Part shown: piece after piece, positions 40,052-60,760 of the stretch
How the letters are laid out: every line of letters begins with the position of its first letter
Numbering within the stretch: position 1 is the stretch's first letter
Source of the DNA: Calothrix sp. NIES-2100
Lineage (GTDB): Bacteria; Cyanobacteriota; Cyanobacteriia; Cyanobacteriales; Nostocaceae
DNA: 64,000 bases
Reading direction: 5' to 3'
Assembly (NCBI GenBank): GCA_002368195.1
Contig: AP018178.1
Location: 5,273,286-5,337,285, forward strand
The notes under the pieces: generated by a model
Told to the model about the DNA's origin: nothing
Databases searched by the model: none
The model's input: only the letters and a program-made list of their open reading frames with translations
Program-made: the position numbers and the translations under genes

Positions 40052-41383
40052 TTAGTTACATAGCTCATGACGAATTACAAATTCTGTCATGAGTTTTAAC
40101 AAATCATGTGCTAATAATCTATCAGCAGCATTTTTAATCACATCAAATGTAATACCTGACTTTTGGGCAATATCCAACAAAGTATGTTGACCATCGGAGA
40201 AATTCAAAACCCACAACATTGCCATTTCATGTAATCTTTTATCTTTGACTTCGTTATTGCCTTCATAAAGACCTCTTTTTCCCAACTGTGGCTCACATTT
40301 GGGATTTTGATTTAAGAAAACTTGATTATTATCAAGGATATGCAATATGGAAAGACATTGAGCAAATGATTCTGCTAGATATTGGGGGTGAATAAAATTT
40401 AAATCATCTGCTGATGTGTGATATTCGGGAAAACTACCATGAGGCGATCGCATTAAGCAACCTACAGCTAAATTAAATCCAGGTGAGCAATACTGGCGTT
40501 CATCATAGCCATAGGGAAAGAAATCGATAATTTCATATTCCTGAGGAGAATTTTTCAAAACATAAGCCGCAACTCGATCAATTTCCGTATTACCTCTACG
40601 GCTTTTTTTATAGGTAAATTTTCCCCCATCTCCTAAACAGGTGAGGACTAGCCCATGCTTAATATTGCTCACTTGAGCTTCATTTACAGCCAACCATGTA
40701 ATTGAGCCGATAGTTCCCGGAATCCAGATAAATCGATAGGAGTATCTTGGGTTACTTTGACTTAAGTATTTAGCTATAAAAGTAGCGATCGCAATTCCCG
40801 AAAGATTATCATTGCACAGTGAAGGATGACAAGCATGGCAAGAAATTAAGACTTCATCTGTGCTTTCTCCAGGGATAAAATATTCACCATAGGTCAGATG
40901 ACCCGGTTCTAATGAAGAATTAATATATACTTCATATTCTTCATCTTTTAGTTGTAAATACTGGTTATGGCTGAGGCAAAAGCCCCAAGCTTCTTTATAA
41001 TATGAAGTGCGATAGGGAATCCAATCAGGATAATCTGGAAGCGTAAACAGATGTGATTTTAATTCTGCAAGAGACAGCTTTTGATGTACAGGTATACTGT
41101 AGTTCAGAACGTGCAGATTTGAATTAGCAAAATCTACAATTTTTTCACCTTGGGAGTTTTTAATATAAGCATCTTTAATATTCCATTCATTAGGAACTGT
41201 CCAATCAAAGACTTCAGTTCCCGTGGGTACTTCATGAATTGATAAAGGAATATATTGCTGAATAATTTTCAGGGTTTCTCGAAAGCCATTACCAGTAATA
41301 CTACGACAGATCGGATATAGCTCAGCGATTAGCTGATAAATTTCCTGAGCAATGTCAGATGATGCGATATTATCAAGGATCAT
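40052..41383 (-). CDS. DUF4910/aminopeptidase-like domain protein (last gene of sugar operon)
   Basis: 443 aa; resemblance to DUF4910 proteins found in polysaccharide/glycan clusters; assignment from memory of family. Confidence 0.5.
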   Translation of the reverse strand: MILDNIASSDIAQEIYQLIAELYPICRSITGNGFRETLKIIQQYIPLSIHEVPTGTEVFDWTVPNEWNIKDAYIKNSQGEKIVDFANSNLHVLNYSIPVHQKLSLAELKSHLFTLPDYPDWIPYRTSYYKEAWGFCLSHNQYLQLKDEEYEVYINSSLEPGHLTYGEYFIPGESTDEVLISCHACHPSLCNDNLSGIAIATFIAKYLSQSNPRYSYRFIWIPGTIGSITWLAVNEAQVSNIKHGLVLTCLGDGGKFTYKKSRRGNTEIDRVAAYVLKNSPQEYEIIDFFPYGYDERQYCSPGFNLAVGCLMRSPHGSFPEYHTSADDLNFIHPQYLAESFAQCLSILHILDNNQVFLNQNPKCEPQLGKRGLYEGNNEVKDKRLHEMAMLWVLNFSDGQHTLLDIAQKSGITFDVIKNAADRLLAHDLLKLMTEFVIRHELCN

Positions 41384-41407
41384 ATCTTTGTTGCCAGATC
41401 AATGGAA

Positions 41408-42154
41408 TTATAAGGGTTTTGCGAACGGTCTAATGTTAATATCAGTCACTTCAGCAGTACGAGGTAAGCTAAGAGCGTTAATCACTACATCAGCCACATC
41501 ATCTGGTTGCATGAGACGTTCTGGGTGATAAGGTTTACCCTCTATTTCGTGAATTCTGGCTTGTAGAGGAGTAGCAGTCCGGCCAGGAAACACGTTAATA
41601 ACCCGTATTTGCTCAACATTCACTTCTTCGCGGAGACTATCAGCGATCGCCTTGAGGGCGTGTTGGGTAGCAGCATATTGTCCCAAATTCGCCCTAGGAC
41701 TGTTAATTACACTGGAGTTGATAAACAAAATTTGTCCGCTACTAGATAAAAGCATCGGGAGTAAAGTTTGTGTCAACAGATAAGGTGCACGAACATTAAC
41801 CCGATAAAGCAAGTCTAACTCTTGAACAGAACTCGTTTGCAATGTCCCCATTGAGAACATACCTGCACTTTGGATAAGCAAGTCAATCTGCTCAAAATCT
41901 CGCTCCAGATTTGTTTTTAGTTTGCGGATATCTTCATCGATCGTCAAGTCGATTGCATAGCAAACAACTTTAGGGGAAGTTTCAAGAGCGATCGCGGCTA
42001 CTGTTTGCAGGGTTTCCAAGTTGCGTCCTAGCAAACAAAGTTTTACACCTTGCGCAGCCAAACCTAAAGCGATCGCTCTCCCGATTCCACTACTAGCCCC
42101 TGTGAGAACTGCAACCTGACCGATTAAAGTTTCCATTTTGAGAGTACTATTCAA
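41408..42154 (-). CDS. short-chain dehydrogenase/reductase (candidate sugar ketoreductase)
   Basis: TGASSGIGRA Rossmann motif; SDR catalytic region with YAATQHALK-type YxxxK; 248 aa. Confidence 0.8.
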   Translation of the reverse strand: MNSTLKMETLIGQVAVLTGASSGIGRAIALGLAAQGVKLCLLGRNLETLQTVAAIALETSPKVVCYAIDLTIDEDIRKLKTNLERDFEQIDLLIQSAGMFSMGTLQTSSVQELDLLYRVNVRAPYLLTQTLLPMLLSSSGQILFINSSVINSPRANLGQYAATQHALKAIADSLREEVNVEQIRVINVFPGRTATPLQARIHEIEGKPYHPERLMQPDDVADVVINALSLPRTAEVTDINIRPFAKPL

Positions 42155-42229
42155 TTCAGTATTGAAGTTGTATTGCTAATGAAATCCTTTGACACTAACC
42201 CATCAAGCTATGCTGTGCTTTTCCCAGCT

Positions 42230-42787
42230 TTACGTTACCCTAGGTGTGACAATTTTTGTCCGCTCAAATAAACTCCAAGTTTTATCTTTTTCCGATATTT
42301 CACTCACTCTTAGAGGCCATTCAATATCAAAAGCTGGGTCATCATAACGATATCCATCGGCATATTCTGGAGCATAGAAATCACCCATTTGATACATCAC
42401 CTCTGTGTCATCGCTAAGAGTTTGAAAACCATGAGCAAATCTATCCGGGATATAAAGCGCCCGCCGATTGTCAGCAGTTAACTCTACACCAATGTGAGAT
42501 AAATAAGTCGGAGATTCTGGGCGTAAATCAATAATCACATCATAAATTGCACCCTGGATGCAACGCACTAACTTTGTTTCCTGGGAAGGAGGCTTTTGAT
42601 AATGCATCCCCCGCAATGTTCCTTTTTTATTATTAAAAGATAAATTGCATTGAGCGATTGTAGATTTTAATCCATAAGCTGCAAATTCATTGATGCAAAA
42701 AGTCCGAGCGAAAAAACCCCGTTCATCCTGGCGCAACTCTAAATCAATAATAAATGCCCCTTTTAGCTTAGTTTCAGTGAATAACAT
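42230..42787 (-). CDS. NDP-4-keto-6-deoxyhexose 3,5-epimerase (RmlC-like cupin)
   Basis: 185 aa; conserved GxLRGMHYQ region (KGTLRGMHYQ) and overall RmlC pattern. Confidence 0.8.
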   Translation of the reverse strand: MLFTETKLKGAFIIDLELRQDERGFFARTFCINEFAAYGLKSTIAQCNLSFNNKKGTLRGMHYQKPPSQETKLVRCIQGAIYDVIIDLRPESPTYLSHIGVELTADNRRALYIPDRFAHGFQTLSDDTEVMYQMGDFYAPEYADGYRYDDPAFDIEWPLRVSEISEKDKTWSLFERTKIVTPRVT

Positions 42788-42803
42788 AAATTTCTAAATT
42801 CGA

Positions 42804-43457
42804 TTAAAAAAACATTTTTCGGCAGTAAAAGGCTTCAGCGTAATTATTAGGTGAATTAGATTCTATTCCCCGAATTCTCAGGATTGAACGAAAAGTATCT
42901 TCTGTAAACCATTGCTTATGATTCTGGGTGAGAAATGAATCTAGAATATAGTTGATTTTTTGCCGACAAATTGTGTCATCTAAATGCACAAAGAAATTAG
43001 GAATCCCCAAGTCACCATCGTACTTGGGGATTTCATATTCCAGAATTAAATGATTTCTAAATGTGTTCCAAGTCAAATTGGAAATTAAACGATGATCTTG
43101 ATGGCGATCGTCTCGGTGATGAGTCAAAATAATATCTGGGTCAAATTCCTGCTTCAACTCCTCAAAGCATTCTTTTACCTCTATTCCGTGGAAAGGTAAA
43201 AAGCCATCTCGAAAATTTTTAATGATGACTTTCTTTGTGTTTACCTCTTTTAAAAAAAGATTGGCGCTTGCAATTGCTTCCTGCTTTCTCTCCTCGTTGG
43301 AACTAAATACTACCCAATATACAATGACATTTTTGTAATTTTCAATCAGTTTTAAGACTGTCCCTCCACAGCCGATTTCAATATCATCGCAATGAGCGCC
43401 TAGACAGAGAATCTTATATTGCGATTCATCTGTCTTATTCAAGCTAAGCTTGATCAT
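42804..43457 (-). CDS. PIG-L/LmbE family deacetylase
   Basis: N-terminal AHCDDIEIGCGG metal-binding motif; 217 aa; 4-nt overlap with upstream gene. Confidence 0.75.
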   Translation of the reverse strand: MIKLSLNKTDESQYKILCLGAHCDDIEIGCGGTVLKLIENYKNVIVYWVVFSSNEERKQEAIASANLFLKEVNTKKVIIKNFRDGFLPFHGIEVKECFEELKQEFDPDIILTHHRDDRHQDHRLISNLTWNTFRNHLILEYEIPKYDGDLGIPNFFVHLDDTICRQKINYILDSFLTQNHKQWFTEDTFRSILRIRGIESNSPNNYAEAFYCRKMFF

Positions 43458-44251
43458 ACATGAGATGCCTCTAGATTTTTATCTCTCCATACTTCCCAAG
43501 GTCTTACACCCTGAGCATACATATCATCCAACTGTTGCTTTTCTTTAAAGGTATCCATAACCCCAAAAAAGCCAGTATATTTATAAGCAATCAGTTCCTG
43601 TTGATTAATCAGTCTTTGAAAAGGTTCTAGAACAAGTTCTTCCCCATAATTAATATACTTGAAAATATCTTTTTTGAAGATAAAATATCCCCCATTAATC
43701 CAGATATCACGCTGCTTCACATCCTGGAGGTCTTGCACCAAACCATTATCATCTATATCTACTAAATGAAAACTTTGGCTTGGTCTCACACACAGAAAAC
43801 TACCTATTTTATCACGCCGATAAAAATTATCAATGTATGTAGGTAAATGCAAATTTGTCAAGCCGTCACTGTAATTAGCGAGAAATACTTCTTCGCCATC
43901 AAGATATTCTTCAATTGCCTTAAACCTTTGTCCAATATTAGCAGTTAAACCAGTATCCACAAAAGTGATATTCCAATCTTGGATATCATGGTTAAACAGT
44001 TGAATTTTGCTGCCACTAGAAAGAGTAAAGTTATTAGAAAGCCATTCATTATAATTTAAGAAATAGCTTTTTATTAGATCAGCTTTATAACCCAAACACA
44101 AGATAAAATCCTTATGTCCATAATGGGCATAGTATTTCATCACATGCCATAAAATCGGTCTATATCCGATATTAACCATCGGCTTAGGAATGGATTCGGA
44201 ATAATCTCTCATCCGCGTACCTAAACCACCACAAAATAGTACTACTTTCAT
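43454..44251 (-). CDS. rfbF: glucose-1-phosphate cytidylyltransferase
   Basis: MKVVLFCGGLGTRMRDYSESIPKPMVNIGYRPILWHVMKYYAHYGHKDFILCLGYK matches the RfbF N-terminus closely. Confidence 0.85.
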   Translation of the reverse strand: MKVVLFCGGLGTRMRDYSESIPKPMVNIGYRPILWHVMKYYAHYGHKDFILCLGYKADLIKSYFLNYNEWLSNNFTLSSGSKIQLFNHDIQDWNITFVDTGLTANIGQRFKAIEEYLDGEEVFLANYSDGLTNLHLPTYIDNFYRRDKIGSFLCVRPSQSFHLVDIDDNGLVQDLQDVKQRDIWINGGYFIFKKDIFKYINYGEELVLEPFQRLINQQELIAYKYTGFFGVMDTFKEKQQLDDMYAQGVRPWEVWRDKNLEASHV

Positions 44252-44261
44252 TTTGCACCTC

Positions 44262-44346
44262 AGTTAATAGTCAATAGTCAATAGTCATTTGTTATTATCT
44301 CCCTCATCTCCCTTATCCCCCACATCCCTAGCCCCTATCCCCTATC
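44262..44346. repeat. STRR heptamer arrays inside sugar operon intergenic gap
   Basis: tcaatagtcaatagtcaatagtca...ccctcatctccc...cctagcccctatcccctatcccc. Confidence 0.8.
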
Positions 44347-44348
44347 CC

Positions 44349-45593
44349 CTAGTAAACATTAACTTCCGGAATAGGGACAACAAACTTACCGCCCCAATCG
44401 CGAATGTAAGAAATTTGTGTCATAATTTCATCCTTAAGATTCCAGGGTAAAATCAGCACATAATCAGGTTTAGTTTCTTGAATTTTGTCAGGATGAAAAA
44501 TGGGAATGTGAGTCCCTGGTAAAAATTGACATTGTTTGTAGGGACTACGATCTACTGTATAGTCAATAAAATCTGTACGAATACCGCAGTAGTTTAACAA
44601 AGTATTTCCCTTACCAGGAGCGCCATAACCAACAATTGTTTTACCTTCACGCTTAACTTTGATCAAAAAATCTAATAACTTGCGTTTGGTTTCTTTAACT
44701 TTCTCACCAAAATCAAAATAATATTCTAATTTCGTAAAACCAGCGGCTTCTTCTCTAGCTTTCAGTTCTAAAACCTGCTGACTAATAGGTTTAGAATCGT
44801 CTTCTGTGTGACGGGCATAAATTCTTAAAGAACCGCCATGAGTAGATAATTCTTCGACATCAAATATAGTCAAACCGTGAGCAGCAAAAATTTTCTCTAC
44901 CGTAGTGAAGGAAAAATAAGAGAAATGCTCGTGGTAAATAGTATCAAATTGATTTTCTTCTATTAACCTCATGAGATGAGGGAATTCCATCGTAATCACA
45001 CCGTGCTGTTTCAGGATAATTTTCATCCCTTTAACGAAATCATTGAGGTACGGTGTATGAGCAAGGACATTATTTCCCAGTAATAAATCCGCCTGTTTTC
45101 CCTTAGCAACTTGTTCTTGGGCTGTCTCCTGTCCAAAAAATTTGACAACGGTGGGAATCCCTTTTTTAATCGCTACTTCAGCAACATTTGCAGCTGGTTC
45201 GATTCCCAAAGCCGGAATATCTTTGGCAACAAAGTATTGCAGTAAGTAACCATCATTACTCGCAATTTCTATGACTTGGCTTTCCTGATTTAGTTGGAAA
45301 CGCTCAACTGCCATATCAACATATTTTTTGGCGTGTTGCAACCAGCTATCGGAGTAGGAAGAAAAATAAGCGTAGTCGCTAAAGATATTTTCCGGACTTA
45401 TGTATTCTTGGAGTTGAACTAAAAAACAATTGTCGCAAACATAAACATGCAATGGATAAAAAGGCTCCATTTCATTTAGCTGTTTAATGTTGCGATAGCT
45501 TTCGCAAGGAGGAGACATACCTAAATCTACGAAGGTATGCTGTAATCCGTTCCCACAAAATAGACAATTACCAGTTGTGTGTTGAATATTCAT
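44349..45593 (-). CDS. NDP-hexose C-methyltransferase (TylC3/EryBIII-like)
   Basis: N-terminal Cys4 zinc ribbon (CLFCGNG...CESY...CDNCFLVQ), class I SAM MTase core, C-methyltransferase C-terminal domain; 414 aa. Confidence 0.75.
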   Translation of the reverse strand: MNIQHTTGNCLFCGNGLQHTFVDLGMSPPCESYRNIKQLNEMEPFYPLHVYVCDNCFLVQLQEYISPENIFSDYAYFSSYSDSWLQHAKKYVDMAVERFQLNQESQVIEIASNDGYLLQYFVAKDIPALGIEPAANVAEVAIKKGIPTVVKFFGQETAQEQVAKGKQADLLLGNNVLAHTPYLNDFVKGMKIILKQHGVITMEFPHLMRLIEENQFDTIYHEHFSYFSFTTVEKIFAAHGLTIFDVEELSTHGGSLRIYARHTEDDSKPISQQVLELKAREEAAGFTKLEYYFDFGEKVKETKRKLLDFLIKVKREGKTIVGYGAPGKGNTLLNYCGIRTDFIDYTVDRSPYKQCQFLPGTHIPIFHPDKIQETKPDYVLILPWNLKDEIMTQISYIRDWGGKFVVPIPEVNVY

Positions 45594-45629
45594 GATTTAA
45601 ATTTATTTTTTAAATACCGAATTTTAAAC

Positions 45630-46658
45630 TTAAAGAGTACGCCAGAAGAAGCTTTGATCAATTTGCTGAGTGCGAATGAGATACTCAAGTTGTTTCAAGC
45701 GAGTAAAGGCTCTAAACTCAAATGTTTCTTTACTCATATCAATTTGCTTAAAGACATTATAAAGTTGTTGCGCACCCCGTTGAGCATTCCATTCACATTT
45801 GAATCCTGGCAAAGTTTGGTTAATTTTATCGAAAGAAACCCGATAGCTACGGTTATCAGGATCATGTTTGCCAAAGCTTAATTGACAACCTGTAAAAACA
45901 TCTGCAACTATTTGGGCAATTTCTTTAACTTGATAGTTGCTATTTGTATCACCGACATTAAAAATTTGGTTGTGAATTACATCACGCGGAGCTTCTAAGG
46001 TACAGATAATTGCTTTACAAATATCCAGCAGATGTACTAAAGGCCGCCAAGGTGTACCATCACTGTTCATCTTAATTTCTTTAATTGTCCATGCCCAACC
46101 TGCGAGATTGTTTAAGACAATATCAAAGCGCATCCTGGGGGAGGCTCCATAAGCTGTCGCATTGCGCAAAAAGGTAGGAGAAAAGCTATCATCAGCTAAG
46201 AGTTTTACATCCTGTTCTACCAATGCTTTGCATTTAGCATAAGCTGTTTGGGGATTGATGTTAGACTCTTCGTTGACATAATCTTCAGTAGCAAAGCCAT
46301 AAACACTGCATGAGGATGTGTAGACAAAGCGTCGTACTCCTGCTTCCTTAGCCAGTTTTGCTAAATGTACTGAGCCTTTATGATTAATATCGTAGGTAAT
46401 ATTGGGCGCTAATTGTCCTAGTGGATCGTTGGAGAGTTCTGCCATGTGAACTACTGCTTCTATTCCTTCGAGATCAGCAGCTTGTAGATTGCGAATGTCT
46501 TTGTTTAAAGTTTTGGCAGTTAGCTCTGTGCCGTTGTACAACCAGCCTACTTTATAAAAGCCCGTATCCACAGCAAGAACTTCATAACCTTGTTGCAGTA
46601 ACAGGGGGGCTAATAATGAGCCGATATAACCTTCAGTTCCAGTGACAAGTACTTTCAT
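45630..46658 (-). CDS. NAD-dependent sugar epimerase/dehydratase (candidate CDP-hexose 4,6-dehydratase)
   Basis: VLVTGTEGYIGSLL Rossmann motif, catalytic YAKCK; 342 aa. Confidence 0.8.
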   Translation of the reverse strand: MKVLVTGTEGYIGSLLAPLLLQQGYEVLAVDTGFYKVGWLYNGTELTAKTLNKDIRNLQAADLEGIEAVVHMAELSNDPLGQLAPNITYDINHKGSVHLAKLAKEAGVRRFVYTSSCSVYGFATEDYVNEESNINPQTAYAKCKALVEQDVKLLADDSFSPTFLRNATAYGASPRMRFDIVLNNLAGWAWTIKEIKMNSDGTPWRPLVHLLDICKAIICTLEAPRDVIHNQIFNVGDTNSNYQVKEIAQIVADVFTGCQLSFGKHDPDNRSYRVSFDKINQTLPGFKCEWNAQRGAQQLYNVFKQIDMSKETFEFRAFTRLKQLEYLIRTQQIDQSFFWRTL

Positions 46659-46669: not shown

Positions 46670-48541
46670 CTAGGCTGTAATTGCAGGTTGTAGATGCTTT
46701 GGTTCAGTAGCAATAGTTAATGGCTGAATTTCTTGATGATTTACCAGCAATACTTTGGAGACAATTTCATCTCGCAAAGGGGCTGCTTCGTCTTGGGTTA
46801 ACCAAAAGAAGAGCTTTGCTAATGATTGTGGAGAACGATCAATTTTGAGGATTTCTTGGAGCATCAGCAAAGCTCCAGCTAAATTACCCGCCTTGAGAGG
46901 AATTGCTGCATTTGCCAGACAATAATTAAAGTTATAGCTACGAGCTTGACGTGTAATCTCTGAACACAGGTCAGTAGGAAGATAACTCTCAGTAATTTCT
47001 ATATTTTGGCGAATGTAAGCGGCAAGTTTCCCAGATACTAATTGACCATCTGTCATGTTGTTAGTATGCAAGCGGTAACATGCCAAACTTCCTGGCTCGT
47101 ACAACCAATCATAAACAACAGCAATGCGCTTGTATAGTTCCCATTCAGGGGCGCAAACTAATTCAGGATGATAACCTCCTCTGTGTTCATAAGTTACCCG
47201 ACGAATTACAACCGCAGGTACCTGCAACGGAAGTGTGATACCAATTATTTGCAGAAAATTCTGAAGTATGCCTTTGTGTTCTCCAAACAAGGAAACTGGT
47301 TCTCCTGGGTTAACTACTGTTCCTGTCTCATTGATGTATTCAAAACCTGTGAAAGCTGCTCCCACAGAATCTGGACAATCTTCGAGACTATGCTGGAGAC
47401 GGGCGTAAAAATTTGGAAAAACACAATCGTCATCATGTAAAATATGAATCCATTCACCCCGACTAACGCTAACACCCACATTATGATTTGGTAGTGCGCC
47501 AACATTTTGCTGATTGCGGTAGTAGCGAATTACTCCTCCCCCCAAACTATTCACTAGATCAAATAAAGGTTTGGTACTGGCATTGTCCATCACCAGTATT
47601 TCCATTTGCTCTGCCCCAGGCCATTGCACCAGAACGCTAGCTAGACATTCGAGTAGATAATCAGTACGGTTATATACCGGAATCACGACAGACCAAAACG
47701 GTCGAGGTTGCTCAGGGTTGGTGACAGGTGGTATCCCTGGAAACTGATAAGCGCCTACAGTAACTTCGCAGTGGGGTATGGGTGGAGTAACAAGGATATC
47801 CTGAGGGCTGCCAGCTTCTTGATAAGCGGCTACTGCTTGGGCATAGTGAGGATTGAGTAACTTTAATCCTTGGCGATAAGCCGCGATCGCACCCGGAAAA
47901 TCCTTCTGTTGTTGATAAACCCTGCCTAATTTGAGGTACAGTTCGCCATTATCAGGATTGAGTTCCACAGCTTTTTGATAATAAGCGGCAGCAATTTGCC
48001 AATCTCCGGCTGTTTCCCGTTCCATTGCCAATTGCTGATTCAATTGCTCGTAGTAGCTTTTTTGTTCTGCTAAAAGCTTCCCTTGGCTATGCAGTATGTT
48101 GCCTAAATTTACCTCGGCTTCTGTACAGTTAGGCTGAATTTCTAAGGCTTTTTGGTAGCAGCTAACTGCCTCATCTAGCTGCCCTTGTTGTTGGAAGGTG
48201 TAACCCAGGTTGTTGTAAATTGGAGCAGCATCTGGCTTGAGGGCGATCGCTTGTTGGTAAGCTACCACTGCTGCTGCTAATTTACCTTGAGCTTGCTGCA
48301 AATTCCCTAAACTAAACCAGGCGGGAAATAATTGCGGTTGCGCCGCCAATGCTGCATTGAGTAACTCCTCTGCTTGGAGTAGATTACCACGCTGTTGTGC
48401 TATTGTACCTAATCTATATAATGCCTCTGGATGATCGGGCTGTGTTTCCAAAACCTGATGGTATATCATCTCAGCCTGCTCTAAACGATTAGCTCGATGA
48501 TTTTCAATAGCAAGTTGAAGGAGTTCAGAAGCGTTTACCAT
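46670..48541 (-). CDS. TPR-repeat protein fused to family-2 glycosyltransferase domain
   Basis: N-terminal ~250 aa TPR repeats; C-terminal GT-A domain (FWSVVIPVYNRTDYLLECLASVLVQ...VMDNAS...HDDD). Confidence 0.8.
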   Translation of the reverse strand: MVNASELLQLAIENHRANRLEQAEMIYHQVLETQPDHPEALYRLGTIAQQRGNLLQAEELLNAALAAQPQLFPAWFSLGNLQQAQGKLAAAVVAYQQAIALKPDAAPIYNNLGYTFQQQGQLDEAVSCYQKALEIQPNCTEAEVNLGNILHSQGKLLAEQKSYYEQLNQQLAMERETAGDWQIAAAYYQKAVELNPDNGELYLKLGRVYQQQKDFPGAIAAYRQGLKLLNPHYAQAVAAYQEAGSPQDILVTPPIPHCEVTVGAYQFPGIPPVTNPEQPRPFWSVVIPVYNRTDYLLECLASVLVQWPGAEQMEILVMDNASTKPLFDLVNSLGGGVIRYYRNQQNVGALPNHNVGVSVSRGEWIHILHDDDCVFPNFYARLQHSLEDCPDSVGAAFTGFEYINETGTVVNPGEPVSLFGEHKGILQNFLQIIGITLPLQVPAVVIRRVTYEHRGGYHPELVCAPEWELYKRIAVVYDWLYEPGSLACYRLHTNNMTDGQLVSGKLAAYIRQNIEITESYLPTDLCSEITRQARSYNFNYCLANAAIPLKAGNLAGALLMLQEILKIDRSPQSLAKLFFWLTQDEAAPLRDEIVSKVLLVNHQEIQPLTIATEPKHLQPAITA

Positions 48542-48582
48542 ATTTAATTATCTGATTAATTAAGCAATTTTTTAACTAACTT

Positions 48583-50502
48583 TCAGTTGTTATCAAAATC
48601 AATTGGCAGTGAGATTAATTTATGAGCGATCGCATCCCTGAGGGGAGCCGCTTCATCACAGGTTAACCAAATAAATGACTGTGCCACTGCTTCAGGCGAG
48701 GAATCTACAATCAAGGCTTCTTGGAGTTTTACAGCAGCAGCATTAACATTGCCAATTTTTAGTAAATGTGTGGCTTGTGCTAGGAAATTTTGCCAGTAAA
48801 AACTTCGTGATTTAGCAGTAATATTTGCAGCATCTTCTACAGGCAGATAGCTTTCGGAGATTTCAATTGCCCGACTGATATCTTTTCCTTGATTTCCTGC
48901 TAATGAAAGTTCGGTAGTGGCATTTTGAGAATGCTCGCGGTAGCGTGCTAAAACTTCCGGCTCACACCACCAATCATCAGTAGCCGCAATGCGTTTGTAG
49001 AGTTCCCAGTCAGGAGTATATTTCAACTCAGGATGATAAACACCAAGCCTTTCATGGGTGGCGCGCCGAATAACCACCGCAGGCATATTTAATGGGTTAC
49101 CTATCCCAATCCCCTCTATCCAATTTGGCGCTATGCCTCTATACTCTCCATATAGTTTTTGAGTGAAAATTACTTGACCGCGATCGTTAATATTTTCGTA
49201 ACCTGTAAAAGCTGCACCCACCGAGTCTGGACAATTTTCTAAACTCTGCTGTAATCGTTCATAAAATCCAGGCAGAATCAAATCATCATCGTGAAGCAAG
49301 TGAATCCACTGTCCCCGACTCAAAGCAACTCCAGCATTCCAATTACCTGGTAAGCCAAGATTTTGCTGGTTGTGGTAGTAGCGTACTATTCCACCCCCAA
49401 TTGAATTGACTAACTCAGCCAGAGATGAGGAACTAGAATCATCCATGACGATGATTTCCATGTTCTCTGCCCCCTGCCATTGTCGCAGTACACTGGCAAG
49501 ACATTCAAGCAGATAGCTTTTACGGTTATATACAGTAACTACAACAGTCCAAAACGGTCGATTTTCTGCACTGGCTAACACTGGTGAAATTGCGGGAAAT
49601 CGATTTTTGCCAACAATCACTTCTTCAAAGGTAATCGGCGGGGTAGCTTGTTCTAACTGGGTGTAAGTACTATCATCAACCGCCACTGCTTTTGCATAGT
49701 GGGGATTAACTAAGCTTAACCCTTGCCGATATGCACCCACCGCCTTTGGGAATTGGTTTTGCTTTTGATAAATGCTACCTAGGTTAAAGTAAACTTCTCC
49801 ATAGTTGGGGTTGATTTGTTGGACTCTTTCGTAACAAGCGATCGCCTCTTCTAATGTCCCTTGTTCTTGCAGCACTACTCCCAAGTTATAATGAGCTTCT
49901 AGTAAATCGGGTTGTAGTGCGATCGCTTGTCTGTAGTAGGTAACAGCATTCTGCAAATCTCCGGCTTTTTTATGAGCAACACCCAACTTGTTATTTAATT
50001 TTGCATAGTGAAGTTTTTGCTCGCTAGAAAGCTTACCTTGGGCGTGCAGTGTATTCCCCAAATTCGCTTCGGCTTCGCTAAAATCTGGTTTTAATTCGAG
50101 AGCTTTTTGATAGTAGTTAATTGCTTCGTCAAATAGTCCTTGTTGTTGCAGCGCATAGCCCAAGTTGTTGCAAATTGGTATTGAATCCCGTCGGAGAGCT
50201 AAAGCTTGATGGTATGCTGTTACTGCTTGTGAAAACTGCTGTTGAGCTAAACGCAAATTACCTAAACTGAACCAAGCCTTAACAAAGTCAGGCTGCACCT
50301 GCACAACAGTATTCCAGAACTTTTCTGCCGACTCTAACTCACCTTTTTGCTGTGCTAGTACACCTAATCTGTATAATGCTTCTGGATGGTTTGGTTCTTC
50401 TACTAACACCTGATGGTAACTTTGTTCAGCTTCGATTAATTGATTAGCTTGATGATACTTAATAGCAACTTGAAGAGTTGAGGAAGAAGAAATCGTCACC
50501 AT
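48583..50502 (-). CDS. TPR-repeat protein fused to family-2 glycosyltransferase domain (paralogue, first gene of operon)
   Basis: collinear with 46670..48541 (FWTVVVTVYNRKSYLLECLASVLRQ...VMDDSS...HDDD). Confidence 0.8.
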   Translation of the reverse strand: MVTISSSSTLQVAIKYHQANQLIEAEQSYHQVLVEEPNHPEALYRLGVLAQQKGELESAEKFWNTVVQVQPDFVKAWFSLGNLRLAQQQFSQAVTAYHQALALRRDSIPICNNLGYALQQQGLFDEAINYYQKALELKPDFSEAEANLGNTLHAQGKLSSEQKLHYAKLNNKLGVAHKKAGDLQNAVTYYRQAIALQPDLLEAHYNLGVVLQEQGTLEEAIACYERVQQINPNYGEVYFNLGSIYQKQNQFPKAVGAYRQGLSLVNPHYAKAVAVDDSTYTQLEQATPPITFEEVIVGKNRFPAISPVLASAENRPFWTVVVTVYNRKSYLLECLASVLRQWQGAENMEIIVMDDSSSSSLAELVNSIGGGIVRYYHNQQNLGLPGNWNAGVALSRGQWIHLLHDDDLILPGFYERLQQSLENCPDSVGAAFTGYENINDRGQVIFTQKLYGEYRGIAPNWIEGIGIGNPLNMPAVVIRRATHERLGVYHPELKYTPDWELYKRIAATDDWWCEPEVLARYREHSQNATTELSLAGNQGKDISRAIEISESYLPVEDAANITAKSRSFYWQNFLAQATHLLKIGNVNAAAVKLQEALIVDSSPEAVAQSFIWLTCDEAAPLRDAIAHKLISLPIDFDNN

Positions 50503-50700
50503 ATAAATTTCTCTAATAATTTGTAATAGCTAAACCCATAAAAAGCCAGGGCTGTCTTCAAATCAGCTGCTTATTTTGGAGTCACACCCAACTTTTTATT
50601 TATTGATGCATAACTAATATAGTTACTTTGTAAATTTTTTTACCTTCGGTTTTTTATAAATATCTACTACTACTATTAGCTAAATAAATTCCATTTGTAT

Positions 50701-50743
50701 AGTCAAATTGGCTAGAAATCAAAATTTTCTAGCCAATTTGGCT
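50701..50743. promoter_or_regulatory. paired AG(T/C)CAAATTGGCT palindromic motifs, 30-nt centre-to-centre, ~200 nt upstream of sugar/GT operon
   Basis: agtcaaattggctagaaatcaaaattttctagccaatttggct; also forms a 15-nt-arm inverted repeat. Confidence 0.45.
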
Positions 50744-50879
50744 GAGATTTTAATTGCTGCACTCAGTCTGAATTATAAATTATAAAATCTTAGTAAATCT
50801 TAAAAATTGCCGCCAAGTCGATGTAGAGTATGAGAATTACCTGATGTGGACAGAGTGGTATCCAAATTTACTTGATATT

Positions 50880-50950
50880 TAAAGCAGTTGGGATAAATTT
50901 CCCAAGGTTTTTGACAACAAGCGATCGCCTCTTCTAACTAGCTTTGTTCT
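50880..50950 (-). pseudogene. decayed fragment of a TPR-GT paralogue
   Basis: ...acaagcgatcgcctcttctaa...ttgttctgggagtacaacacc closely matches 49845-49900 inside the intact gene, but has no ORF. Confidence 0.4.
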
Positions 50951-50967
50951 GGGAGTACAACACCCTG

Positions 50968-51160
50968 TTAAAATAATTCGTAATTCGTAATTCGTAATTT
51001 TTAATGTAGGGGCACCTTCACCGATATCCTTGTTGAGTACCGACGATCCAAATAAACCCGCCCCTATAGACAGGCGTATCGCCTGACTCAAACAAATTCA
51101 CGTATAGAGTCAGGGGAATTAAACCCAAAAATTACGAATTAGTAATTCGTTAAAATTGAC
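50968..51160. mobile_element. MITE-like element with ~20-bp terminal inverted repeats built on AATTCGT units
   Basis: left aattcgtaattcgtaattcgtaattttt; right aaaaattacgaattagtaattcgtt (reverse complement); ~130-bp core; no ORF. Confidence 0.35.
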
Positions 51161-52177
51161 TACTCTTCAACTAGCCCATTCACCGATCAACAGTAGCTGT
51201 TGATATCGATGGAGCGGTGTTTTTTCGTCGTCTAAATCAGCATTTAGGGCGATCGCTTCGCTGCGATCGGCAACAAAAGTCTGTCAATCACCTATTGCCA
51301 ACAAAACAGTGATGATTGCCTGTCGCTCAAATTTCTTCTATTGAAATCGAACTAAAACCGGATTGTGAACAACTACTAGAAGTAGAGCTTGAGTAACTAA
51401 TCGAACTTGAATTTACGTAAATACTTGCATTTCCCTCAGAGGAAATACTGACAGAAATGCTCTGACTGACCTCACTTTGATCGTCGCCAGATGCCTTGAC
51501 AAAACTTTTAACCTCGGCTATAGTCTTTCCATCAGGTGAGACTATCCGTTTATTTACAACTCGATAGCGATTCACGATCGTCCTACCTACTTGTTGTTTA
51601 TTTGGATAAGATAAGCAAATCAGAGGAAGGATAAGTCAGGGGATAATGCGCGTTACAATTATCACCTGAATTGATCTGGCTCTGATGGCTCGCAACAACA
51701 AAATAAAAGTTTTTTCTGAGATTTGTTAACTTTGGGCAATTAATTTTTTAATTGCCCATGTTCATTATATAGCATAATTGGTGATTAACGATCATATTTT
51801 TGACTGTGTAATTCATAAAAATATCTCATCTATTGATAGATAGTAATTTGATTTTTTATGGTTTTAAATAGATAAATGCCAAAGTTATGGCTAATAACTA
51901 GCAAATTTTCTTGTCCAGATTTAAGCGATGGTTTTTTAGTTTTTGAAGCGATACAAAATCTGTCTTTGCCTTGGAAACTTTCCCATTAGTAAAGTAACCT
52001 GAATTCAAAGATTTATGTATTAACCTGACCCCCAATCCCCAGTATTAAAAATTCTTCCGGATCTTCCCCTCAACCCCGCCACTGCAAATGAGGGGTAGTG
52101 AAAATCGTAATTTTTCTGATTCTTCCCTCTCCTTGTAGGAGAGGGGGATTAGGTGGGTGAGGTTTTTGTAATACAAG

Positions 52178-54652
52178 TTAAAGTATTGCGCCTGCTTTTG
52201 TTTCCTCTAACTTCTGCTGACTTTCATCAATATCTTCTAAAATCCTGTGAACTTCCCTATGGTTGGGATTCAGTTCTAGCGCTTGTTGAAAATAAACTTT
52301 GGCAGTTTGTAAATCACCTGCCTTTTTTCGACTAAGACCTAATTTATAATTTAATTCTGCATAATGAGCTTGTTGGTCTTGTGAGAGTTTACCTTGGGTA
52401 TAAAGCGCATTACCTAAATTTACATCCGCTTCAACGCAGTTGGGCTGTATTTGTAAAGCTTTTTCATAGCAATTTATCGCTTCTTCCCATTTGCCTTGTT
52501 GTTGCAAAGCATAACCCAGGTTGTTGTAAATTGAAACCGCATCTGGTCGCAGAGCAATGGCTTTTCTGTAAGCGTGTTCAGCTTTTGGTAACTGTCCCTG
52601 TAGTTGACACAGATTTCCTAAAGTAAACCAAATTTTGACAGAATCAGGTTGAACTTGTGAAGCTGTACTGAGGAATTTCTCAGCTGCTTGCAATTCTCCC
52701 CTTTGCTGTGCAATTACACCTAGACCATATAAAGCATCAGGATGGTCTGGCTGGATTGACAAAACCTGACGGTAAGCTTGTTCGGCTGGTTCTAAGTGAT
52801 TTTCTCGATGTTCTTGGATTGCTAGTCGCAGGGTTTCCGCAACGCTATTTATAGCAGATATCCTGGGTTTGCCGACAGCATTCAGCAAAAATTCCTCTAA
52901 GGCTCGAATTGGCTCCAAGTCGCCATATAATTTATGCTTGTTCTGGGAAATTAACTCGGATATGTAGTGACGATATTCAGAATCTCTCCCTAGACGGATG
53001 GCAAATTGTACATATTCCTCCTTGCTAGAAGCAATTGTTTCCTCGATACCCATCATCTTCAAGATTGCCAGAGTATGTCGTCCCCTCATCAATTCCCCTG
53101 GTAGAGTGATAACGGGAACGTTATAGGCAATACATTCCAAGGTAGAATTACATCCAGACCAACCGATGCTATCCAGAAAGACATCTGCTATGGCAGCTGT
53201 GCCAGCAAACCTTCTGCTACTCATGCCCGGTAAAAATATACAGTAGTCTTGATAATTCAGCCCAAATTCCTGAAAAATTTGCTGTAAACGCTGACGAAAT
53301 ACTTCAGTAATATATTCACTCTCATCATGTTGGATAAATACAAACTTACAATTGCTTAACTCTTTAGCAATTTTGGGAAAAACGTCATCATGTTGAGGTA
53401 AATATTTAAATAAGGATTGGCAACACCATAACATAATTTCATTATCGGCAATGCCAATATCTTTTTTGCTCACAGCCTCATATTCAGTTGCTAGAGGCGT
53501 GTAATGAATAGATAGATTTGGTAATCTGACTAATTTTTCTGTATAGTGTTCTTGAGCATTTTCTGGTTCCATTAATTCACTGCTCAAGTAATAATCAATG
53601 GTTGGTAAACCACTGGTTTGAGGATGTCCCCAAGAAGTGATTTGAATAGGAGCTAGCTTTAAACAACCTAGTCTTACTGTCATATGATCCATCCCAAATT
53701 CCGGGAAAATCAGGATGTGTAAATTGTCTTTGTAAATTAGCTCAGCCCATTCTTCAAATGACAGTGACCCTTGAGTAAATTTGTCAAATTCTTTTGCGGC
53801 TCTTGTAGTGTTATGATCTCGCTTGGAGTTAGTGTGATATGCAAATAATTCAAATTCACTCCTATCCAAGTTTTCGATCCAACCCTTGATGGGAATTTTC
53901 CAATTAGAATGACTGTAAAAAAATTTGGAAACTAAACCAATACGAACTTTTTGATTTGGCTTTAAATCTGGCAGAGGAATAGCTTGACTCCATTGGGGAT
54001 AACAATTCGACGTAATATGAACAAGCATTTCCCCATAAGTTTTCTGCAAAGTCCGGTCATTTAAGCATTGATAAGCCAGATAAAAAGGCTGTAGTGAACC
54101 TACTGTATCTACAGATTTTTCTAACTCTTGTTTGTCAGCTATTTGATAATTTTGAGCTAATTCTTCTAGGTAATTTTGATAGTTATTTCGCTGAGTATTT
54201 ATTTCTGTATAACTGGAGTAAATAATTGGCAATTGAGCAATGAGAAGTCCAAATTTTGCTCTAGATAAATCAGGTTGAAACTTTAAGGCTTGCTGATATG
54301 CTTCTATAGCAGCCTCTAGGTCACCTAAGTCATAATATGTATTTCCTAAGTTCCAATAAGCATATACAAAATCAGGCATAATTTTTAATGCCTGTTGGAA
54401 GCATTTTTTAGCTGACTCTAAGTCGCGTTGACCCGTCAATGCACAGCCCAAGTTATGATGAGCCTCAGCATAGTCAGGTCTGATTTTTAATGACTGTTGG
54501 AAAGATGCTGCTGCTGCTTCTAGCTTACCTTCTTTTAGAAATATATTCCCTAAATTGAAATGTTCTTCAGCATTCAAATTGGTGTCTGTTACAGGAGAAT
54601 TCGATTGCAAAGATAGAGCCTCTGATGACATAACAACCTCATAAATCTGCAC
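52178..54652 (-). CDS. TPR-repeat protein with central O-GlcNAc-transferase-like (GT41/SPY-like) glycosyltransferase domain
   Basis: N- and C-terminal TPR blocks; central region (RIGLVSKFFYSHSNWKIP...APIQITSWGHPQTSGLPTIDYYLSS...) resembles GT41; C-terminal TPR block near-identical to N-termini of the two TPR-GT2 proteins. Confidence 0.8.
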   Translation of the reverse strand: MQIYEVVMSSEALSLQSNSPVTDTNLNAEEHFNLGNIFLKEGKLEAAAASFQQSLKIRPDYAEAHHNLGCALTGQRDLESAKKCFQQALKIMPDFVYAYWNLGNTYYDLGDLEAAIEAYQQALKFQPDLSRAKFGLLIAQLPIIYSSYTEINTQRNNYQNYLEELAQNYQIADKQELEKSVDTVGSLQPFYLAYQCLNDRTLQKTYGEMLVHITSNCYPQWSQAIPLPDLKPNQKVRIGLVSKFFYSHSNWKIPIKGWIENLDRSEFELFAYHTNSKRDHNTTRAAKEFDKFTQGSLSFEEWAELIYKDNLHILIFPEFGMDHMTVRLGCLKLAPIQITSWGHPQTSGLPTIDYYLSSELMEPENAQEHYTEKLVRLPNLSIHYTPLATEYEAVSKKDIGIADNEIMLWCCQSLFKYLPQHDDVFPKIAKELSNCKFVFIQHDESEYITEVFRQRLQQIFQEFGLNYQDYCIFLPGMSSRRFAGTAAIADVFLDSIGWSGCNSTLECIAYNVPVITLPGELMRGRHTLAILKMMGIEETIASSKEEYVQFAIRLGRDSEYRHYISELISQNKHKLYGDLEPIRALEEFLLNAVGKPRISAINSVAETLRLAIQEHRENHLEPAEQAYRQVLSIQPDHPDALYGLGVIAQQRGELQAAEKFLSTASQVQPDSVKIWFTLGNLCQLQGQLPKAEHAYRKAIALRPDAVSIYNNLGYALQQQGKWEEAINCYEKALQIQPNCVEADVNLGNALYTQGKLSQDQQAHYAELNYKLGLSRKKAGDLQTAKVYFQQALELNPNHREVHRILEDIDESQQKLEETKAGAIL

Positions 54653-54928: not shown

Positions 54929-55747
54929 TTAAGTGATGATTTGTATCGAGAGTTGATTAGGAGCGACTCCCTGCACAAACCCAATTAAGTCTAAACCACC
55001 AGCCGCAGTAGGCGATGCAGCAGAAATAAACGTATCAGCACCATTATAACCAAATGAATACGTCGCCGCGCCACTTAACTGGATAATATCCTTACCAACC
55101 TCGTAGTCAAAAATAAACGCATAGTCTGCGTCCTCCCCACCTAGATAAAACGTCCCACCAGCATTACCCAGAACGAATGTATCGGCAGCGTTATCGGGGG
55201 ACAAGCCTACTATATTACCATCGTTGAGAACACCACTACCAACCAAGATATCAAACCCACCCGTCGGAGCAGCAGCGGAAGCTCCCACTATGGTGTCACT
55301 CCCCGCTCCTCCAAATAACTGGTCATCACCATCACCGCCAGTAAGGCTGTCATTGCCGCTATCCCCATAGAGGACGTCATTACCTACAGTGGCATCGAGT
55401 AGATCATTGCCTGCACCCCCATCCAAGTAATCATCGCCTAGACCGCCAAAAAGTTTGTCATCGCCGTTATCCCCAAAGAGTCTATCATCCCCAAAACCCC
55501 CTACCATGAAGTCATTACCATCGCCCCCACGGAGGGTATCATTACCGAAATCTCCGGTGAGGTTGTCATTGCCTTTACCCCCAGAGATGCTGTCATTGCC
55601 GTCACCCCCTAAAATGTTATCATTACCACCTCCACCTATGATGGTGTCATTTCCACTAAGACCTAAGATACTATAGTTAACAGTAATACTGTCTCCCCCT
55701 GGTACAGTGATTTTATCGTTGCCATTGGTTCCTAATTTAGAAGGCAT
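54929..55747 (-). CDS. hemolysin-type calcium-binding (RTX) repeat protein
   Basis: tandem GGxGNDxLxG nonapeptides ([42 protein letters not shown]...). Confidence 0.85.
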
Positions 55748-56085: not shown

Positions 56086-56385
56086 TTACTTTCCGCTGTA
56101 AGCAGTAGAGTTAACTAAAGCGTTAGCAGCACCAGCTGTGGTTTGAGTAACAAATACGATTTGAGCAATGTTCTTTTGTCCACCAGAAGCATCAGCAGAA
56201 CCAGATACTTCAGCCAAGTTACCAGCTAAACCACCGGTGTTCACAGCAAAGCTCTTGTAGGTGGTTTCGACAATGGTTTGCTTAACGTTTTTGTTGAGGT
56301 TAAAGGCTACGTTGGTAGCGAATCCGTCGCCACCAATTACTTCTTCAGATGCATCTTCAAAGTAGTTTAGGTCGTTGATAATCAT
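56086..56385 (-). CDS. small secreted peptide precursor with double-glycine-type leader (bacteriocin-like), copy A
   Basis: start set at MIINDLNYFEDASEEVIGG (strong AGGAGA RBS 9 nt upstream; ORF track begins further upstream); 99 aa; Gly/Ala/Thr/Asn-rich core. Confidence 0.6.
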   Translation of the reverse strand: MIINDLNYFEDASEEVIGGDGFATNVAFNLNKNVKQTIVETTYKSFAVNTGGLAGNLAEVSGSADASGGQKNIAQIVFVTQTTAGAANALVNSTAYSGK

Positions 56386-56465
56386 TGCTTTTCTCCTGAG
56401 ATTTGTTTGTATCAACTCTGTTTGAGTTGTTGATATCAATATAGCTAAGTCAATTCTGCTTGTAT

Positions 56466-56983: not shown

Positions 56984-57283
56984 TTACTTTCCGCTGTAAG
57001 AAGTAGAGTTAACTAAAGCGTTAGCTGAATTGGCTGTGGTTTGAGTAACAAATACGATTTGAGCGATGTTCTTTTGTCCGCCAGAAGCATCAGCAGAACC
57101 AGATACTTCAGCCAAGTTACCAGCTAAACCGCCTGTGTTCACAGCAAAGCTCTTGTAGGTGGTTTCGACAATGGTTTGCTTAACGTTTTTGTTGAGGTTA
57201 AAGGCTACGTTGGTAGCGAATCCGTCGCCACCAATTACTTCTTCAGATGCATCTTCAAAGTAGTTTAGGTCGTTAATAATCAT
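56984..57283 (-). CDS. small secreted peptide precursor with double-glycine-type leader, copy B
   Basis: 99 aa; differs from copy A at a few core positions (TTANSANALVNSTSYSGK versus TTAGAANALVNSTAYSGK). Confidence 0.6.
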   Translation of the reverse strand: MIINDLNYFEDASEEVIGGDGFATNVAFNLNKNVKQTIVETTYKSFAVNTGGLAGNLAEVSGSADASGGQKNIAQIVFVTQTTANSANALVNSTSYSGK

Positions 57284-57362
57284 TGCTTTTCTCCTGGTTT
57301 TGTTTGTATCAACTCTGTTTGAGTTGTTCATATAAATATAGCTAAGTAAATTCTGCTTGTAT

Positions 57363-57893: not shown

Positions 57894-58160
57894 TTATTTA
57901 GATGCATAAGCAAGCGCTTGCGAAGAAGCAACAGCTATATAAGGAACTTTTTTTAAAGGTGATGTTATCACTTGCGATCCAGCTCGTGCATAAGTGGTTT
58001 TACCTTCGGCTGAGGCAAAACCACTACCATTTGAAAAGGCACTGAATCGCGATGCTTCACTTAAACTCGAAGATGATGAGACTGCTGAAACACCACCGCT
58101 TAAGATGATGCTGTTTTCCGCAGTTATAGAGGCTAAATATTCTAAATCAGCAATTTTCAT
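57894..58160 (-). CDS. small secreted peptide precursor with GG-type leader (divergent, Ser/Ala-rich core)
   Basis: start set at MKIADLEYLASITAENSIILSGG (ttggagaatttaaaagcATG RBS); 88 aa. Confidence 0.5.
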   Translation of the reverse strand: MKIADLEYLASITAENSIILSGGVSAVSSSSSLSEASRFSAFSNGSGFASAEGKTTYARAGSQVITSPLKKVPYIAVASSQALAYASK

Positions 58161-59055: not shown

Positions 59056-59391
59056 TTAAGAATTACCTACTCCTCGCAAAGGTATTAGTACCTTGGGTTT
59101 TAATATTGATGATGCAACTGCGAGAAGTTTACTAATACCTTTAACCGCAGATGGAGTAACTAACGGTATCGCCTTAGCCCAATTTAAACGCCAATTCCCG
59201 ATCGCTGTACCAATTCCTGGGCTGGAGCTAGCAGTCTTGCCTGTATTATAGTTACTCAAACTCATAGCACTTACAGAAATACTACGGTTCTGGTTCAGAC
59301 TAGCAGTGACATTGAGATCGCCACCCCCGATAACAGTGTCATCGTCAGAAATAGGCTCTAAATGGTCTAAATCGTAAATCTTCATGCTCAT
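59056..59391 (-). CDS. small secreted peptide precursor with GG-type leader (divergent)
   Basis: MSMKIYDLDHLEPISDDDTVIGGG leader; aattggagaattta 5' leader shared with 57894 gene; exact start (59391 versus 59385) uncertain. Confidence 0.5.
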   Translation of the reverse strand: MSMKIYDLDHLEPISDDDTVIGGGDLNVTASLNQNRSISVSAMSLSNYNTGKTASSSPGIGTAIGNWRLNWAKAIPLVTPSAVKGISKLLAVASSILKPKVLIPLRGVGNS

Positions 59392-60635: not shown

Positions 60636-60760
60636 TGGGTACTAGGGACTAGGGGGATGAGGGGGACAAGGGAGACAAGGAGGACAAGGGAGACAAGGGA
60701 GACAAATATTCAATACCCGATGCCCAATGCCCAATGCCCAATGCCCAATGCCCATTTTAT
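60636..60760. repeat. STRR heptamer arrays (CTAGGGA, GACAAGG, CCCAATG)
   Basis: gggactagggggatgagggggacaagggagacaagg...cccaatgcccaatgcccaatgcccaatgccc. Confidence 0.8.

Follow-up and report, generated by a model that had tools for sequence, protein, structure and literature searches.

In a 64,000-nucleotide stretch of the genome of the cyanobacterium Calothrix sp. NIES-2100 (contig AP018178.1, positions 5,273,286 to 5,337,285; referred to here as the window), three genes on the minus strand, which we call A, B, and C, encode glycosyltransferases that share a tetratricopeptide repeat (TPR) module (Table 1). An original prediction, made from the DNA letters alone, had described these three open reading frames (ORFs) as a paralogous family with different catalytic domains, and both the ORFs and the difference between their catalytic domains were recovered. 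A and B each combine an N-terminal TPR array with a Glycos_transf_2 domain (PF00535; 74.8 bits in A and 95.4 bits in B, cutoff 23.3), whereas C carries, along with its TPRs, a Glyco_transf_41 domain (PF13844; 89.3 bits, cutoff 25). By these Pfam matches, C is a member of glycosyltransferase family 41 (GT41), and A and B are members of family 2 (GT2). A and B align from end to end at 51% identity (BLASTP), B having one extra 34-residue TPR unit. The translation start of C is uncertain: the longest ORF opens with a GTG at position 54652 (824 amino acids [aa]), and the database protein begins with Met8, the first residue of MSSEALS, at 54631 (817 aa). The NIES-2100 proteins in the databases match B and C at 100% identity, and database names across the whole enzyme family are generic.

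Table 1. Features of the locus, in window coordinates; residue ranges refer to the predicted proteins, and an asterisk within a translation marks a stop.
Feature	Position (nt)	Strand	Details
A, soluble TPR-GT2 glycosyltransferase	46670..48541	−	623 aa; Pfam, BLASTP
A, shared module	47903-48535		aa 3-213
A, GT2 domain	~47042-47692		aa 284-~500; DDD motif; followed by a C-terminal helical domain
B, soluble TPR-GT2 glycosyltransferase	48583..50502	−	639 aa
B, TPR superhelix			aa 6-265
B, shared module	49837-50490		aa 5-222
B, GT-A fold	48937-49551		aa 318-522
B, C-terminal helical bundle			aa 528-631
C, predicted TPR-GT41-TPR protein glycosyltransferase	52178..54652	−	824 aa from GTG start
C, OGT-like N-terminal TPRs	54248-54574		aa 27-135
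C, GT41 domain	~52883-54001		aa ~218-590
C, C-terminal shared module	52214-52846		aa 603-813
Relic piece 1	50839..50964	−	one decayed TPR unit (GVVLPEQS*LEEAIACCQKPWEIYPNCFKYQVNLDTTLSTSG), in-frame stops; tblastn
Relic piece 2	50538..50618	−	other frame, ISYASINKKLGVTPK*AADLKTALAFY; found with related-locus ORFs as queries
Near-perfect palindrome	50700..50744	.	45 nt, 19 pairs; between the relic pieces
Small Ser-rich protein	51327..51575	−	82 aa; homologs in related loci
RTX calcium-binding beta-roll protein	54929..55747	−	272 aa; directly upstream of C; PF00353
Double-glycine-leader peptide	56086..56385	−	99 aa; leader MIINDLNYFEDASEEVIGG, then core; motif search
Double-glycine-leader peptide	56984..57283	−	99 aa; 78% identity to its counterpart in L083, the closest related locus
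Double-glycine-leader peptide	57894..58160	−	88 aa; leader MKIADLEYLASITAENSIILSGG, then core (31% Ser+Thr)
Double-glycine-leader peptide	59056..59385	−	109 aa; leader MKIYDLDHLEPISDDDTVIGG, then core
Nucleotide-sugar operon	40052..46658	−	directly downstream of A; profile searches
Short-chain dehydrogenase/reductase (SDR) epimerase/dehydratase	45630-46658	−	
Sugar C-methyltransferase	44349-45593	−	
Glucose-1-phosphate cytidylyltransferase-like	43454-44251	−	
PIG-L deacetylase	42804-43457	−	
RmlC-like 3,5-epimerase	42230-42787	−	
SDR	41408-42154	−	
DUF4910/DUF2172/HTH_47 protein	40052-41383	−	
Ser/Thr/Ala-rich degenerate beta-roll paralog 1	36898-38259	+	453 aa
Ser/Thr/Ala-rich degenerate beta-roll paralog 2	38623-40011	+	462 aa

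All three enzymes look functional, judging from the retained motifs and, for B, from a confident structural model. In C, as in enzymes of the OGT/SPINDLY type, the N-terminal TPRs directly precede the GT41 domain; they align with the TPRs of OGT and have the xNLG asparagine in each repeat. The motifs around the conserved His (VSKFFYSHS) and Lys (QSLFKYLP) are kept, together with WGHPQTSG, and align with those of SPINDLY and TtOGT, which along with human OGT are the closest solved structures to the catalytic domain. What sets C apart from described TPR-GT41 proteins is an extra C-terminal TPR module of ~210 aa, which in some species is fused to a GT2 domain. An assignment of C to the HMW1C-like N-glycosyltransferases was considered and rejected (NCBIfam NF049992, 50.7 bits, cutoff 1000). 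A and B keep the DDD motif (HDDD), and D406 is invariant in 73 homologs. An AlphaFold2 model of B, built on a 73-sequence alignment after a single-sequence run had left the GT2 part unresolved, reached a predicted local distance difference test (pLDDT) score of 91.4 and a predicted template modeling (pTM) score of 0.83, with a TPR superhelix, a GT-A fold, and a helical bundle. In a Foldseek search of the PDB, the GT-A part of this model matched 6p61 (TM-score 0.88, target-normalized), WrtF, and K4CP, and the TPR part resembled the TPRs of SPY and OGT; TPR matches dominated the list, and no full-length structural analogue of B was found. No transmembrane segments were detected in A, B, or C, and the three enzymes are soluble and presumably cytoplasmic.

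The N-terminal TPR blocks of A and B and the C-terminal TPR block of C had been called near-identical. Pairwise alignment and domain parsing bear out a specific shared module without gaps, but its identity is only 55 to 56%: residues 3-213 of A match residues 603-813 of C at 55% identity with 0 gaps (E = 1e-70), and residues 5-222 of B match the module of C collinearly at 56% (BLASTP). The module is about 4.5 canonical TPRs plus a family-specific extension, an atypical element at module residues 156-210 (QGKLSxxQxxHYAxLNxKLGxxxKxAGDLxxAxxYY). TPR repeats are highly stereotyped, and an exhaustive HMMER search with the module over 1.8 billion representative proteins, which served as the control for generic TPRs, returned 377,369 matches at E ≤ 0.001, a listing flooded by giant generic TPR proteins. 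Both facts would suit a similarity made of TPR consensus alone, without a specific common origin. We give this explanation practically no chance, as it is refuted by the comparison with generic and off-register matches. Off-register TPR matches within the same proteins, the N-terminal TPRs of C included, reach only 27 to 38% identity, and generic multi-TPR proteins reach 27 to 40% and align only over module residues ~1-155, against 55 to 56% over ~210 aa with zero gaps. Furthermore, residues 156-210 were aligned only in members of the family. Therefore, the similarity between the modules is specific and far above chance. A word-indexed search of proteins, queried with the module on its own, gave no more than 13 short fragments and no useful information.

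A scan of one genome per species yielded 80 loci with relatives of C, all of them cyanobacterial. The module lies directly after the GT41 domain in 62 of 62 complete GT41-only orthologs (from filamentous cyanobacteria), and in 11 loci N-terminal TPRs, GT41, module, and GT2 form a single fused polypeptide, the ~1400-aa forms having exactly one module between the two catalytic domains. These fusions indicate that GT41 and GT2 act together; along with the surrounding secretion island described below, they are decisive for the functional interpretation, and neither had been part of the original prediction. Among relatives of B, the module is also fused to a hexapeptide acetyltransferase, an SDR, a methyltransferase, or a second GT2. 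Over 138 modules, two GT41-class modules share 68% identity on average, two GT2-class modules 63%, and one module of each class 58%; cross-class pairs from the same locus average 59%. In 121 of 127 cases, the closest module at a different locus is a member of the same class, and 10 of the 11 fusions carry a GT41-type module. On these sequence comparisons, the GT41-type and GT2-type modules are separate, old, vertically inherited lineages.

It could be argued that a recent burst of duplication and domain shuffling in this genome produced the three genes and a decayed fourth copy. A and B are adjacent paralogs, a module relic adjoins B, and three other loci, in Scytonema and Brasilonema, are the only ones with raised cross-class module identity (76 to 81%), which hints at occasional exchange of modules between the classes. 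The comparative data nevertheless make such a burst very improbable. All 62 orthologs share one architecture, the module classes are old, the identity of the A-C and B-C modules equals the general between-class mean, and the closest relatives have the same gene order; moreover, the modules of A, B, and C do not group together to the exclusion of their orthologs. The arrangement of A, B, and C was thus inherited and not made locally. Module shuffling, which had been proposed for this locus, holds at the level of the family, where one module is attached to different catalytic domains, but not as an event of this genome.

Between C and B, remnants of a further module can be recognized. The noncoding fragment that had been noted there (50880-50950) falls inside a 42-codon tblastn match (relic piece 1; 43 to 50% identity, E = 2e-5 against the whole window), and a second piece, which is 63% identical to the family-specific element (HYAxLNxKLG..AGDL..YY), ends 36 nt before the ATG of B. 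The two pieces are in the correct order for one module and together comprise ~70 recognizable codons. Because piece 2 matches the family-specific element, the relic can be traced to this module family rather than to some other TPR; its best matches are GT2-class modules, and it represents an additional GT2-type module that has decayed. The palindrome between the two pieces may have inserted into the old copy and disrupted it. The claim of a decayed fourth copy is thus borne out for the module, with its stops, but not for a whole gene, since no remnants of a GT2 catalytic domain were found in the gap between C and B. RTX-gene remnants were likewise not found there, and only the TPR relics and the Ser-rich ORF occupy this gap. 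As some B-type relatives have two tandem modules (L072, 881 aa; P0169, 880 aa), the relic may be what is left of an N-terminal module that B once carried in tandem, rather than of a lost gene.

The genes around A, B, and C fall into two groups, those for sugar synthesis and those for putative secreted proteins. The operon downstream of A looks like a pathway to a C-methylated deoxyhexose via a cytidine diphosphate (CDP)-sugar, as judged from its predicted enzymes. In the 61 related loci with at least 8 kb of downstream sequence, a TPR-GT2 gene is present in 49 and a C-methyltransferase gene in 30. The RTX (repeats-in-toxin) protein upstream of C has PF00353 nonapeptide repeats (104.9 bits, cutoff 23), and an RTX protein is found in 59 of 79 related loci. 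The small Ser-rich protein, a candidate acceptor for O-glycosylation, has a conserved N-terminal half (KRIVSPDGK.IAE.KS..KASGD..SE.SQS) and a variable poly-Ser tail, and its homologs directly follow GT41 in Dapis (L001), Tolypothrix (L062), and Gloeotrichia (L084). The two beta-roll paralogs, which are 71% identical to each other and contain 7 to 8 N-x-S/T sequons each, are conserved and likewise candidate acceptors. Their homologs lie between GT41 and GT2 in L003, L008, and L010 and beside GT2 genes in L058, whereas in the window they are found past the sugar operon and on the other strand, implying a local rearrangement. Pfam and NCBIfam gave no informative family for the Ser-rich ORF, the two ~455-aa beta-roll proteins, or the peptides described next.

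Upstream of C, four ORFs with a double-glycine (GG) leader are the only matches to this motif in the window. Two of these peptide genes (56086-56439 and 56984-57331, minus strand, ~0.9 kb apart) are nearly identical, the only differences being near the C terminus (TAGAANALVNSTAYSGK versus TANSANALVNSTSYSGK) and in the ORF extension upstream, which suggests that they arose by tandem duplication not long ago. None of the four cores contains cysteine. In related loci, the leader (consensus MIISDLNYLENTSEEIIGG) has a mean identity of 72%, and the cores are 11% identical and 27% Ser+Thr. In 49 of 67 loci, GT41 is preceded by a same-strand GG-leader ORF within 3.5 kb (median gap, 511 bp). Exporter genes are also frequent in the related loci: a C39-peptidase ATP-binding cassette (ABC) transporter in 46 of 80, HlyD in 47 of 80, and a SurA-like protein in 51 of 80. 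The set was confirmed with independent gene calls and Pfam in Nostoc L081, in the closest relative L083, and in Gloeotrichia L084, and the C39 catalytic motif of the relatives' exporter is intact. In these three loci, the gene order begins with the cyclic nucleotide monophosphate (cNMP)-binding/C39-peptidase ABC exporter, followed by HlyD, the SurA-like protein, the GG peptide, in some cases RTX, and GT41; after GT41 come in some cases RTX, or a Nif11-type peptide with a radical S-adenosylmethionine (SAM) enzyme, and then two TPR-GT2 genes and sugar genes.

The Nif11-type leader peptides and the radical SAM enzyme lie between GT41 and GT2 at 13166-14924 in Nostoc L081 and at 13176-16133 in Gloeotrichia L084. 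This insertion, a second element of the island that resembles ribosomally synthesized and posttranslationally modified peptide (RiPP) systems, occurs in about 30 of the 80 loci and is absent from the window.

We propose, with a probability of roughly 0.6, that A, B, and C provide the glycosylation step within a secretion island that is conserved in cyanobacteria, and that peptides and proteins encoded by the island would be glycosylated in the cytoplasm before their export. The substrates are probably small secreted peptides and calcium-binding proteins. The process could proceed in the following steps: (i) C, a GT41 enzyme of the OGT/SPINDLY type, would probably start the glycan by adding its first sugar to an island-encoded protein or peptide, with the GG-leader peptides, the RTX and beta-roll proteins, and the small Ser-rich protein as candidate acceptors; (ii) the GT2 enzymes A and B would add further sugars, probably supplied by the adjacent CDP-sugar operon; and (iii) the product would be exported, in relatives through the adjacent C39-peptidase ABC transporter with HlyD and the SurA-like protein. 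The shared module would be the docking domain through which enzymes with different catalytic activities are brought to one common partner, be it the substrate or the other enzymes.

Several observations weigh against this proposal. Beyond homology and synteny, we infer each functional step, including the glycosylation of the island proteins, the acceptor, the sugar, the order of the steps, and the partner of the module, from the genes. No C39-ABC exporter genes are present in the window, so the exporter must be encoded elsewhere in the NIES-2100 genome. The motif search found no adjacent GG peptide in 18 of 67 loci, and in the Moorena loci neither GG peptides nor exporter genes lie near the fused enzyme. 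In L082 (Moorena producens, 10001-20809), the GT41-module-GT2 fusion adjoins a second TPR-GT2 gene, PIG-L, a 704-aa protein, and Methyltransf_21, with transposase-like genes upstream. The glycosylation set can thus occur detached from the export island. In a reciprocal test, in which metagenomes were scanned with the DNA pattern of the GG leader, leader-bearing contigs had the exporter upstream in 16 of 21 cases and GT41 downstream in only 4 of 25. Leader conservation is therefore accounted for by the exporter alone, and the glycosylation genes are an optional add-on. As read from its sequence, the module has the OGT-type ladder asparagine (xNLG) in only two of five repeats. The cytidylyltransferase-like protein of the sugar operon scores 214.1 bits against TIGR02623, below the cutoff of 300.25, with a full-length alignment (1-255). 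Finally, GT2 enzymes and nucleoside diphosphate (NDP)-sugar operons are also typical of polysaccharide loci.

This last point raises the possibility that the cluster builds a polysaccharide (sheath, exopolysaccharide, or O-antigen-like), with A and B acting on a glycan or lipid-linked acceptor, the TPRs organizing the complex, and the secreted-protein genes being unrelated. The GT2 domains of A and B do resemble those of polysaccharide enzymes (PglI, chondroitin polymerase, and WcaA), RmlC-like, PIG-L, and DUF4910 genes in an NDP-sugar operon are typical of glycan loci, and some homologs bear the JGI label "involved in cell wall biosynthesis". We nevertheless consider a polysaccharide product unlikely. 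To our knowledge, every characterized GT41 enzyme modifies proteins, and here GT41 is fused with GT2 in 11 loci and the enzymes are soluble. Profile searches of the cluster (about 40 to 59.4 kb of the window) found no polyprenyl-phosphate priming transferase, flippase, polymerase, or polysaccharide exporter. In addition, there is strong, conserved synteny with GG peptides, RTX proteins, and a peptide exporter.

For the module, a role in substrate recognition is plausible by analogy with FlmG and OGT, and a role in holding the enzymes together would fit the data equally well. In FlmG, the modular flagellin O-glycosyltransferase of Caulobacter, the TPR domain binds the substrate flagellin (PMC7591256). 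A and B resemble FlmG in architecture, with an N-terminal TPR region followed by a glycosyltransferase domain in a soluble protein, and FlmG modifies a secreted protein in the cytoplasm. The differences are that FlmG has a GT-B domain and transfers pseudaminic acid to flagellin, whereas A and B have GT-A (GT2) domains. As far as we know, cyanobacteria have no flagella, and all related loci are cyanobacterial.

Alternatively, the module may be an assembly domain, in which module-module contacts would hold GT41 and the GT2 enzymes together as one complex and the substrate would be recognized elsewhere, for example by the N-terminal TPRs of C. The TPRs of OGT dimerize, one module suffices in the fusions and each partner carries its own when the enzymes are split, and the N-terminal TPRs of C, in contrast to the module, have the full xNLG asparagine ladder placed as in OGT. 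The same pattern of fused and split enzymes would arise just as readily if every unfused enzyme required a substrate-docking domain of its own, and the precedent of FlmG is one of substrate binding (PMC7591256); we therefore find a purely assembling role rather doubtful.

Docking to a substrate could also be more general. Different RiPP tailoring enzymes carry a small PqqD-like winged-helix domain, the RRE (RiPP recognition element). The logic here may be alike, in that one recognition domain on many catalytic domains would serve one precursor, the difference being that the module is a TPR superhelix. An RRE-like module would dock exported precursors through the GG leader or through a feature shared by the peptides and RTX proteins, and so recruit changeable tailoring enzymes (GT41, GT2, acetyltransferase, SDR, or methyltransferase). 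We put this forward tentatively and do not expect it to be the likeliest outcome. Reading of the conserved GG leader by the module is possible but unsupported; this suggestion was weakened by the reciprocal metagenome test and was downgraded after it.

Parts of the proposed glycosylation and secretion island recall known systems. The cyanobacterial GT41 enzyme Ogt/OgtA glycosylates pilin (PMC9306852); C differs in lying in a secretion and sugar-biosynthesis island and not beside pilin genes. Glycocins such as sublancin, glycocin F, and pallidocin (PMC6405829, PMC12457901) likewise combine GG-leader precursors, a GT2-family enzyme, and a C39-peptidase ABC exporter, the last present here in the relatives. 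However, the cores at this locus are 65 to 90 aa long, hypervariable, and free of cysteine, unlike the Cys-containing glycocin cores, which form nested disulfides (helix-loop-helix), and three glycosyltransferases including a GT41, a CDP-sugar pathway, and RTX proteins are encoded together. The system may work alike, but an identity as a glycocin was rejected because the cores lack cysteine and the window has no exporter. A PDB sequence search returned no SunS-type sequence, and no direct comparison with SunS was made. The exporter genes have their own counterpart in the cyanobacterial "bacteriocin" clusters of groups I, II, and VI (Wang et al. 2011, PMC3140520; PMC4558948) and in the EbfG/PteB biofilm system (PMC4997328), which share the long ABC exporter, HlyD, a SurA-like protein, and GG peptides. 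The full set, with the cNMP-binding C39 ABC exporter, HlyD, the SurA-like protein, and GG precursors, is present in L081, L083, and L084, and the window has the precursors only. Wang et al. (PMC3140520) and Micallef et al. (PMC4558948) mention no TPR domains and tie no glycosyltransferases to the bacteriocin clusters. No description of the island was found in the literature searched on cyanobacterial GT41/RTX links, the glycosyltransferases of oscillin and SwmA, and TPRs in glycocin enzymes.

Extracellular glycoproteins of cyanobacteria, oscillin among them, have long been known, and glycosylation has been reported for S-layer proteins of the RTX type such as SwmA; we know of no identified enzymes for the glycosylation of such proteins. 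Double-glycine peptides are abundant in cyanobacteria, mostly without a known function. In the island, secreted proteins of these kinds are linked to a dedicated deoxysugar pathway and to three enzymes, one GT41 and two TPR-GT2. It is widespread (Nostoc, Calothrix, Rivularia, Scytonema, Stigonema, Moorena, Symploca, and others), uncharacterized, and testable, and it supplies definite targets for knockouts and mass spectrometry. Should the module indeed serve as a shared docking handle, it would be the TPR-based equivalent of the recognition domains of RiPP enzymes and could offer a route to engineered peptide glycosylation. If it acts in an RRE-like manner, the island would define a class of ribosomally produced, secreted peptides and proteins of filamentous cyanobacteria that are heavily glycosylated and have so far gone unrecognized.

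Two minor features of the intergenic DNA were also observed. Inverted repeats lie just 3' of the stop codon of C (52100-52150, minus strand), including CCCTCTCC-TACAA-GGAGAGGG; a terminator or a small dispersed repeat is possible, and a simple terminator scan did not call this inverted repeat. Short tandem repeats of heptamers and nonamers occur between genes at 50974-50999, 50771-50786, 59874-59896, and 60645-60754, with the units TAATTCG (3.7 copies), AATTATA, TAAGAAT, GGGACAAGG (6.8 copies), and CAATGCC (6.3 copies), and they resemble short tandem repeats that are frequent in heterocystous cyanobacteria.

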